Shown piece by piece: positions 21,298 through 22,926 of a stretch of DNA of 64,000 nt (within the stretch, counting starts at the first letter, position 1; each line of letters begins with the position of its first letter). The translations under genes and the position numbers were made by a program. The notes beneath the pieces are model-generated. The model saw nothing but the letters and a program-made list of their open reading frames with translations. It did not search any database and was not told the DNA's origin. Source of the DNA: Candidatus Obscuribacterales bacterium (GTDB lineage Bacteria > Cyanobacteriota > Vampirovibrionia > Obscuribacterales > Obscuribacteraceae); assembly GCA_965228855.1 (NCBI GenBank), contig CBDDIJ010000005.1, positions 1,440,001-1,504,000 on the forward strand, in the 5' to 3' direction.

Positions 21298-21410
21298 TCT
21301 ACTATATGCCGACATAGTCCGCAACACCCAAAGTGCAGTCCAGGCATGCTTTCCCACCCAAACGCCCTTGCCCAACCTCCTGCAAACCCGGTTTTGGCTA
21401 TCCAGCTATG
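21298..21410. repeat. Dispersed repeat copy B, interrupted by IS110 (continues at 22676-22690)
   Basis: Removing the IS restores TTTGGCTATCCAGCTATG|ACGGATTTAGAAAAT, versus copy A TTTGGCTATCCCACGATGACGGAATTCGCGAAAT. Confidence 0.6.
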
Positions 21411-21425
21411 AGATAGTGTGTTCGC

Positions 21426-21431
21426 TGTCAA
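21426..21431 (-). promoter_or_regulatory. -35 box TTGACA of the IS circle-junction promoter (paired -10 TACGTT at 22673-22668)
   Basis: Joining the two IS ends gives TTGACA-gcgaacacactatcttg(17 nt)-TACGTT just upstream of the bridge RNA. Confidence 0.8.
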
Positions 21432-22393
21432 CAATGAACGCTTAGATGATTGGGATTAAATGGTGTCTTTGTCCTGTAGATCGCCATCATGATGCGAAGT
21501 AGCTTGCGCATGGCGGCGCACAAGATGACTTTCCTTGGTTTGCACTTCTCTGCCAACTTTGTCGCGAATTTTTGAATGGCAGGGTTTGATCGAACTGCGC
21601 TCAGAGACGCCATGTAGAAAACTTTCCGGAGGCGCTTGCAGCCTTTCTTAGACATCTTCGGACGCCCTCGAACAGAAGTTCCAGACTCGCGCAATTCCGG
21701 AGTCAAGCCGCAGTAGCTCTCGACTTCTCTCAACGACTCGAAGGAATCCAAGCCGGAAATTTCCGTGAGAAACGTGAGTGCCGAGATCAAACCGACTCCA
21801 GGGATGGTTTGCAGTAAGGCGAGATCGTTCTGAAATTGCGGTTCGGACTTGATCAAGAGGTCTCGAGCCTGTTCCAGCAGCAAAATCTCATTGTTGATGA
21901 ATTCGATTTGCCGCTGAAGCGAGATACTCACAGGTTCGTCGAGCCGACCGGACTCGGTACGATTCACGGTTCTGGTTCGGTCGGTCTTGAGCGCATCAAT
22001 GTGACGCTCAATGTTGCGAATCTTCCGGACCACGTCCGGGAGGGGCGTCCAGGTCTTCGGTTGAATCAGTTTGCAAAACTGTGCGATTACCTCGGCATCA
22101 ATTGCGTCCGTCTTTGAACGCTTCAACAGGCTTTTGCCAAAGTTTTTGATCTGAACAGGATTGACGACGCTGACGGCAAAACCTTTGTCGCAGAAGTATT
22201 CTGCGAGTGGCTCCCAGAGCTTTCCAGTGGCCTCCATGCAAATTTGTACTTCGCTTTCGGTGTGCTGATTCAGCCACTTCTCAATTCGCCGAAATCCGCT
22301 GTCAGAGTTGTCAGCGTGCAACTTCCGCCCTCGTTCCGAGAGCAGATAGCAATCCACAGTCTCTTTAGAGATGTCTATCCCAAGTGATATCAC
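21428..22393 (-). CDS. IS110 family bridge recombinase/transposase (321 aa)
   Basis: DEDD RuvC-like residues (GIDISK, CMEATG, KTDAIDA), IPGVG, catalytic-Ser motif ESGTS; GGAGG RBS before GTG. Confidence 0.95.
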   Translation of the reverse strand: MISLGIDISKETVDCYLLSERGRKLHADNSDSGFRRIEKWLNQHTESEVQICMEATGKLWEPLAEYFCDKGFAVSVVNPVQIKNFGKSLLKRSKTDAIDAEVIAQFCKLIQPKTWTPLPDVVRKIRNIERHIDALKTDRTRTVNRTESGRLDEPVSISLQRQIEFINNEILLLEQARDLLIKSEPQFQNDLALLQTIPGVGLISALTFLTEISGLDSFESLREVESYCGLTPELRESGTSVRGRPKMSKKGCKRLRKVFYMASLSAVRSNPAIQKFATKLAEKCKPRKVILCAAMRKLLRIMMAIYRTKTPFNPNHLSVHC

Positions 22394-22444
22394 GATGCGC
22401 CTCCATTTAGACTTGCCAACCTACACAGGACGCGGATAGAATCT

Positions 22445-22662
22445 TGTCAGGGCGAGCCTTGTACGCATGCTAAATCGTTCTAGGATTTGCATCTGATAGT
22501 GTTCAGCCTCAGAGGACAAGACAGAAACGGAAGTCCAAACCTCATAGCCTGACTTCGCGGTCATACGCTTTTTCCTGGTTTCTTCCGTTTCTCTATCCTC
22601 GCGTCCTCGGATAGCCTTGCCGACAGCAGGACCTGGTGTCAATTGATTGGGTCTGCTGTCAA
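22445..22662 (-). ncRNA. Bridge RNA (5' hairpin, target-binding loop, donor-binding loop)
   Basis: 5' hairpin 22622-22660; left target guide AAAAAGCGT (22573-22565); right target guide GCTATGAG (22548-22541); left donor guide ACACTATC (22502-22495); right donor guide CGTACAAG (22465-22458); RNA ends approximate. Confidence 0.85.
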
Positions 22663-22744
22663 TCTCTAACGTACAACGGATTTAGAAAATTCCGGCATCG
22701 TAGCGTAGACAAACCACCTTGTATTACTGCGACTACAGCGACGT

Positions 22745-22926
22745 CAAAACCGGTCAACGCTTGCGGCACAGACTCTTCCAGCTTTCACAAACCAACTACG
22801 ACGTTTAGTAGTCTTTCGCGTGACTGCAAAACCGGTCAATGCTTGCGGCACAGACCTTTTCAGCATTTGCATATCCACCACTGCATCTAGTAGCAAAAGC
22901 CGACAGCCACTACTGCATTTAGTAGT
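22745..22926. repeat. 82-bp-period direct repeat with three palindromic boxes
   Basis: CAAAACCGGTCAAYGCTTGCGGCACAGAC at 22745 and 22827; boxes TACGACGTTTAGTA (22797), CACTGCATCTAGTA (22879), TACTGCATTTAGTA (22911). Confidence 0.75.

Follow-up and report, generated by a model that had tools for sequence, protein, structure and literature searches.

An IS621-like IS110 element carries the core GT at its left junction and the core CT at its right junction, with the T alone in common, and this asymmetry is encoded by its guides; it is real and repeated, and is neither a chance event nor a one-off case. The element lies in a stretch of 64,000 nucleotides from Candidatus Obscuribacterales bacterium, referred to here as the window, and apart from its core asymmetry it is an otherwise ordinary IS621-like element. 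Its features are listed in Table 1.

Table 1. Features of the element, its guides and its target, in window coordinates
Feature	Position	Strand	Basis
IS621-like IS110 element, 1265 bp with donor CT taken as right end	21411-22675	-	copies and empty-site skip
Recombinase gene, 321 aa	21428-22393	-	Pfam PF01548 and PF02371; match to IS621
Left-junction core GT (target positions 8-9)	22676-22677	-	junction reading; empty site L031 is GT
Right-junction core CT (probable donor positions 8-9)	21411-21412	-	CT in 19/19 right junctions
Left target arm TAAATCC	22678-22684	-	guide match 4/7
Right target arm CATAGCT	21404-21410	-	positions 10-14 match guide 5/5
Right donor arm TGTAC (left end begins)	22671-22675	-	copy comparison
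Left donor arm ACACTAT (right end finishes)	21413-21419	-	copy comparison
Predicted bridge RNA, approximate limits	22430-22640	-	guide complementarity and covariation
Left target guide (LTG) AAAAAGC-GT, AAAAAGCGT	22565-22573	-	alignment
Right target guide (RTG) GGCTATG, core-reading AG (reads CT), handshake GT; GCTATG-AG at 22541-22548	22539-22549	-	alignment
Left donor guide (LDG) ACACTAT-C, ACACTATC	22495-22502	-	alignment
Right donor guide (RDG) GTACA, core-reading AG, handshake GC; GTACA-AG at 22458-22464	22456-22464	-	alignment
-35 hexamer TTGACA, predicted circle-junction promoter	21426-21431	-	17-base spacing to TACGTT across CT core
-10-like hexamer TACGTT, predicted circle-junction promoter	22668-22673	-	sequence
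Interrupted REP-like palindrome, left part	22676-22715	-	sequence
Interrupted REP-like palindrome, right part	21390-21410	-	sequence

The element, its junctions and its empty sites

The recombinase matches the structures of IS621 (8wt6, E 4.6e-50) and ISCro4 (9t56, E 8.3e-47). Based on the alignment with IS621, it contains D7, E54, D96, D99 and S237, and its residues A55, G57 and N78 correspond to the core-contacting A61, G63 and N84 of IS621. The features that define the IS110 family are present, namely a DEDD RuvC-like domain and a Transposase_20 domain with the catalytic serine. The long non-coding end lies upstream of the gene, as in the corresponding IS110 group, with 282 bases from the left junction to the start codon, and the right end is short. 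The window's genome (G000) harbors four copies, the proteins of which are identical, and a near-identical copy was detected in a congener (L001).

On the minus strand, the window junctions read TAAATCC-GT-TGTAC on the left and ACACTAT-CT-CATAG on the right. GT on the left and CT on the right were found in all four copies of G000 and in the L001 copy (5/5). The preliminary description had read the same pair of cores, sharing T alone, from the window copy; the junctions are confirmed, and the sites before insertion agree with them. The window site is empty in genome G007 (L031), where it reads AATCC-GT-CATAG, and the site of the L001 copy is empty in G000, again with the core GT. The empty sites for copies B and C, represented by homologous repeat units in G007 that are 84-88% identical, are GT as well; no empty site was found for copy D. 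A 1265-base skip with one ambiguous base was recovered in contigs from four of eight metagenome runs, with a short side of only 27 bases in two of them. The GT empty sites and this skip with its one ambiguous base therefore identify GT as the target core, with only the T shared. The two-base core shared by both sides, a hallmark of IS621-type elements, is thus absent from this element (GT vs CT). A reading of the target as GT and CT in tandem was rejected: it had no match in the genome, and the empty sites do not fit it.

CT stands at the right junction and agrees with the donor guides and the 17-base promoter spacing, and the core of the donor circle is therefore probably CT. No circle junction was seen in the contigs of the eight metagenome runs, contigs being a form of data from which rare forms are dropped.

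The REP-like palindrome interrupted by the element was surveyed with anchors outside the core, and among 258 hits the core column was GT in 154, GG in 97 and CT in 1; both orientations were taken in this census, and a single repeat may be counted twice. The ten hits with the right arm CATAG comprise nine GT and one GG. Given that the left arm in the window matches its guide at only 4/7 positions, the REP structure may also play a part in targeting. Immediately left of the REP, at window 22720-22900, is an imperfect tandem repeat of about 70 bases, and similar larger units are found around other REP copies. The same genome contains a sister IS110 element in three copies, with 52% protein identity to the GT element, located at G000:C2 near 775673, 859534 and 1121743 (L028-L030). 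The sister is CT/CT, has a left guide with CT as its last two bases and occupies the opposite arm of the same REP palindrome; its RNA scaffold and donor are nearly those of the GT element.

The predicted bridge RNA and the cores of related insertions

As in IS621-type elements, four guides are complementary to the target and donor arms and covary with them, and a promoter (TTGACA/TACGTT, 17-base spacing) would be rebuilt at the predicted circle junction. The predicted RNA fold consists of two long stem-loops in which the guides are partly paired, and its stability is no better than that of shuffled sequences (z -1.14). The bridge RNA region had no match in Rfam.

The main difference among copies is found in the LTG (AAAAAGC, AAAATGC and AAATTGC; window 22569-22570; L002, L001 and runs X9, X14 and X16). 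These variants match their own flanks at 6/7 positions, which suggests continuing retargeting among REP variants. An RTG variant with two changed bases (window 22546-22547; runs X6 and X8) is predicted to recognise another REP arm, and its contigs still align through the left GT. In a contig of run X16 (window 22092-22617), a sister-type RNA with a CT guide is joined to the start of the GT element's gene; this joint may have arisen by a natural swap or by chimeric assembly, as the two elements have more than 31 bases in common there.

Related loci were drawn from overlapping sets of 61, 401 and 104 genomes, and a metagenome scan supplied 6 loci. Nineteen distinct insertions with both junctions locatable were kept, and their guides were read from alignment columns. 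Three of the nineteen rows (G031, G002 and G286b) are misaligned at the left junction and stand outside the sixteen aligned insertions; by eye they read TT/CT, CT/CT and CT/CT. Duplicates of one site were left out (L003 and L044; L037 and L041), as were loci with a single junction (L009, L012, L038-L040, L052, L055, L056 and L091; the left junction is AT in all seven that retain one), a divergent subfamily with an unfixed register (L007, L013, L021, L080-L082, L090 and L093) and other distant loci.

In all sixteen aligned insertions (5 GT, 6 AT and 5 CT), the left core is identical to the two final bases of the LTG. This supports the earlier proposal that the LTG itself encodes GT, and guide and junction agree across all three core types. 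The right side is constant: the right core is CT in 19/19 insertions, the RTG core is AG in 19/19 and the RDG core is AG in 16/16. Tabulated over copies and relatives, asymmetry is present in 11 of the 16 (the GT and AT types) and CT/CT in the other 5. The polarity is identical in 11/11 asymmetric insertions (p=4.9e-4 vs 50:50), or 12/12 with L006, which is TT/CT by eye and has a left guide ending in TT. Kin are not independent with respect to the guide pattern, and insertions at different sites are counted as separate events. Of the 19 right junctions, 18 carry donor AT at positions 6-7. The sole deviation at these positions is the right junction of copy B (L025), where position 7 is C and not the donor T; repair of a T:G heteroduplex to C:G could account for this single case, as could a simple mutation. 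Left arms match their guides at 4-6 of 7 positions, and right arms in the AT group at 2 to 5 of 5.

For two AT-type insertions, the homologous empty sites are AT (L058, L060 and L063; L066 after a small indel). These are diverged homologs (71-94%), and three of four aligned homologs of the L051 site are too diverged there to be read. For L047 no homolog of the site was found, and the matches of L046 end before the junction, leaving no empty site. In the protein tree, the GT and AT types are located on separate branches among CT relatives, with many deep forks open; a single AT clade has low support (53/10), and the branch of the GT element is long. Four plasmid homologs outside the family were read by eye, and in the three with both junctions no asymmetry was found (two CT/CT and one CA/CA). 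The CA/CA case, the IS621-like L097 (plasmid CP008939.1), does not have T at position 9.

Proposed mechanism and competing explanations

It is likely that the element enters GT empty sites from a CT-core circle, with top-strand cuts after the shared T, an LTG that reads G and right guides that read C. Because the guide RNA is predicted to spell the GT/CT mismatch, the element likely joins two DNAs with one common core base. Cleavage of the IS621 top strands falls between positions 9 and 10, and that of the bottom strands at 9*/10* (PMC11208158), which corresponds to positions 5/6 in the numbering used here. By analogy with the IS621 structures, the present element would have its top strands cut at 9/10 and its bottom strands at 5/6. 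The overlap would then comprise positions 6-9, which are already mismatched at 6-7, and base 8 would be one more tolerated mismatch. The LTG would read the bottom strand and follow the target G, and both right guides would keep G; the donor C would be paired by this G in the donor loop first and, once exchange has taken place, in the target loop. The RTG of the element fits the strand present after exchange, with the core of the donor, as had been noticed from the window copy, and the RTG of IS621 also pairs with the donor core after exchange (PMC11208158). T9 alone would have to be common, since the protein reads T9; it was reported that the IS621 protein reads T9 through a G63 contact and does not read C8, and that G80/G165 of the right guides contact A61 (PMC11208158). 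A non-C target would be reachable by one LTG change, and a full core switch would take four guide positions plus the donor.

The bottom strand would stay nicked and be rewritten from the top strand, fixing target positions 1-9 on the left and donor positions 1-9 on the right. In IS621 products, the bottom strand is expected to remain unligated and mismatched (PMC13626964; PMC11208158). None of the eleven asymmetric insertions is reversed where equal strand inheritance predicts half, which suggests that the top strand templates repair of the nicked, mismatched bottom. The base-pair count over positions 6-9 is net +2 for the GT layout vs 0 with a target loop fully reprogrammed to GT and a CT donor, with stacking and kinetics left aside. 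By our own reasoning, this difference may explain the absent CT:GT cross-reaction in IS621 designs.

A broader reading can be put forward tentatively, with chances somewhat short of even. It holds that bridge recombination does not require a two-base shared core and that a natural rule operates throughout the clade, by which one CT donor reaches any NT target when the LTG carries target base 8 and the right guides carry donor C. The rule would have been reached at least twice (for G and A, and probably T), the top strand alone would dictate the product, one change in a guide would suffice to transfer the layout to IS621 and ISCro4, and mining filters that demand a repeated core would have removed such elements.

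Among the alternatives, dependence of the asymmetry on a special recombinase, and not on the RNA layout alone, is unlikely but retains the most weight. The 52% identity to the CT sister and the long branch of the GT element leave room for an adapted protein. Against this, the IS621 core-contacting residues are conserved in the element, and the GT and AT types stand on separate branches among CT relatives, although the support values for a single AT clade (53/10) are weak.

A little less likely still is the view that the asymmetry is a directionality device, with a core mismatch that promotes integration and prevents excision. Like a handshake base, the RTG is indeed mismatched with the target at position 8 until exchange and paired with the donor afterwards, and the direction of IS621 is set by handshake pairing (PMC13626964). 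The RDG behaves oppositely, however, and position 8 therefore nets zero base pairs, with one pair before exchange and one after. The same net +2 was obtained for a guide-encoded GT target, a hypothetical CT target, the CT sister and the AT group, and the window's own site gives +1. The bias toward integration over excision that the preliminary description had proposed is accordingly not upheld, the net being alike for GT, AT and CT. The GT layout would be explained more simply by access, as the census suggests: C is almost never found in the REP column, and altering one guide base makes that column reachable.

It is also improbable, to a greater degree, that both heteroduplex outcomes (GT/CT and CT/GT) arise and that the reversed form is lost or overlooked. 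The 4-base stagger of IS621 would yield both products after replication (PMC11208158), and the target-type C at position 7 in copy B could trace bottom-strand information. On the other hand, the absence of reversed forms comes from searches anchored on the protein, the RNA scaffold or the donor arms and never on the cores, the donor AT at positions 6-7 is retained in nearly all right junctions, and a reversed copy would be expected to be immobile, not deleted. The weakest explanation, ordinary CT/CT insertion at tolerated off-targets or later mutation or conversion without any encoding in the RNA, can draw on the non-CT off-targets of IS621 (15/117 sites without CT; PMC11208160) and on the imperfect left-arm matches, but it is very improbable and is largely refuted by empty sites that were GT already, a REP column with just one CT and a guide base 8 that follows junction base 8 across three states.

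Relation to known systems and consequences for core design

The element resembles IS621 in its RuvC-like DEDD and Tnp-serine recombinase, its predicted upstream RNA, which carries four guides and handshake bases and may fold into two loops (PMC11208160; PMC11208158; PMC13626964), its near-identical donor form, its circle-junction promoter (predicted here), its REP targets and the T at core position 9. It differs in its cores: those of IS621 are CT at the left and at the right, and the two IS621 target guides read CT, whereas here the LTG reads G and the other three guides read C. The architecture is also shared with IS622/ISCro4, in which CT or GT cores occur (10.1101/2025.05.14.653916; PDB 9t56); the IS622/ISCro4 site pairs, unlike those of the element, were filtered to identical cores (10.1101/2025.05.14.653916). 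Like ISPpu10 and ISPpu9, the element has a fixed insertion point in a REP palindrome and tolerates natural guide mismatches (10.64898/2026.03.19.712850; PMC1525189); the ISPpu elements, in contrast, have a two-base repeat on both sides, and the CT core of ISPpu10 was confirmed at both junctions. In the seekRNA view of IS110/IS1111, no duplication occurs and one copy of the apparent repeat belongs to the element (PMC11187229). This view fits the junctions described here and makes their pattern less surprising, and the guide rule is absent from the available text of that source (PMC11187229). The novelty of the finding is lowered by the seekRNA repeat argument and by the IS621 off-targets without CT. 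No natural guide-encoded core mismatch was found in the available text of the bridge-recombinase and IS110 literature; guide-binned target logos, preprint supplements and the final ISCro4 papers may contain examples.

Several reports bear on whether mismatched cores can be used. RNA pairing with both core strands is strongly preferred in IS621 (PMC11208160), which counts against the mismatched-core proposal. The AT, GT and TT cores of IS621 were tried only as full sets, in which the target, the donor and the four guide positions were all altered at once (PMC11208160). Orthogonal CT:GT cores abolished cross-reaction and were used as an orthogonality barrier, in a guide layout that differs from that of the element (10.64898/2026.04.29.721476). 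The published bridge RNA designer stops with an error when target and donor cores differ (PMC11208160), site pairs in the human-genome work were filtered for identical cores (10.1101/2025.05.14.653916), and in both large mining pipelines a core that recurs at the two ends is used to define elements or to extend them (PMC11208160; 10.64898/2026.10.21.760802).

The published design rules thus forbid mismatched cores, and the layout of this element contradicts that working rule. GT x CT and AT x CT are apparently normal reactions in natural elements, and they offer a one-base recipe. If the recipe works, every site with a T at position 9 could come within reach of one CT donor, and genomic site pairs for inversion or excision need not match at base 8; the widened targetable space proposed in the preliminary description is plausible in this respect. 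Core orthogonality would depend on the setting of the right guides, and the one-way polarity bears on how cells resolve a mismatched bottom strand.

The targets of the AT-core relatives (L004, L047, L051, L058, L060, L063 and L066) form a pattern of their own, consisting of CATAA, 6-7 bases and then TTAT or CTAT, and presumably resemble Xer/dif-type recombination sites.
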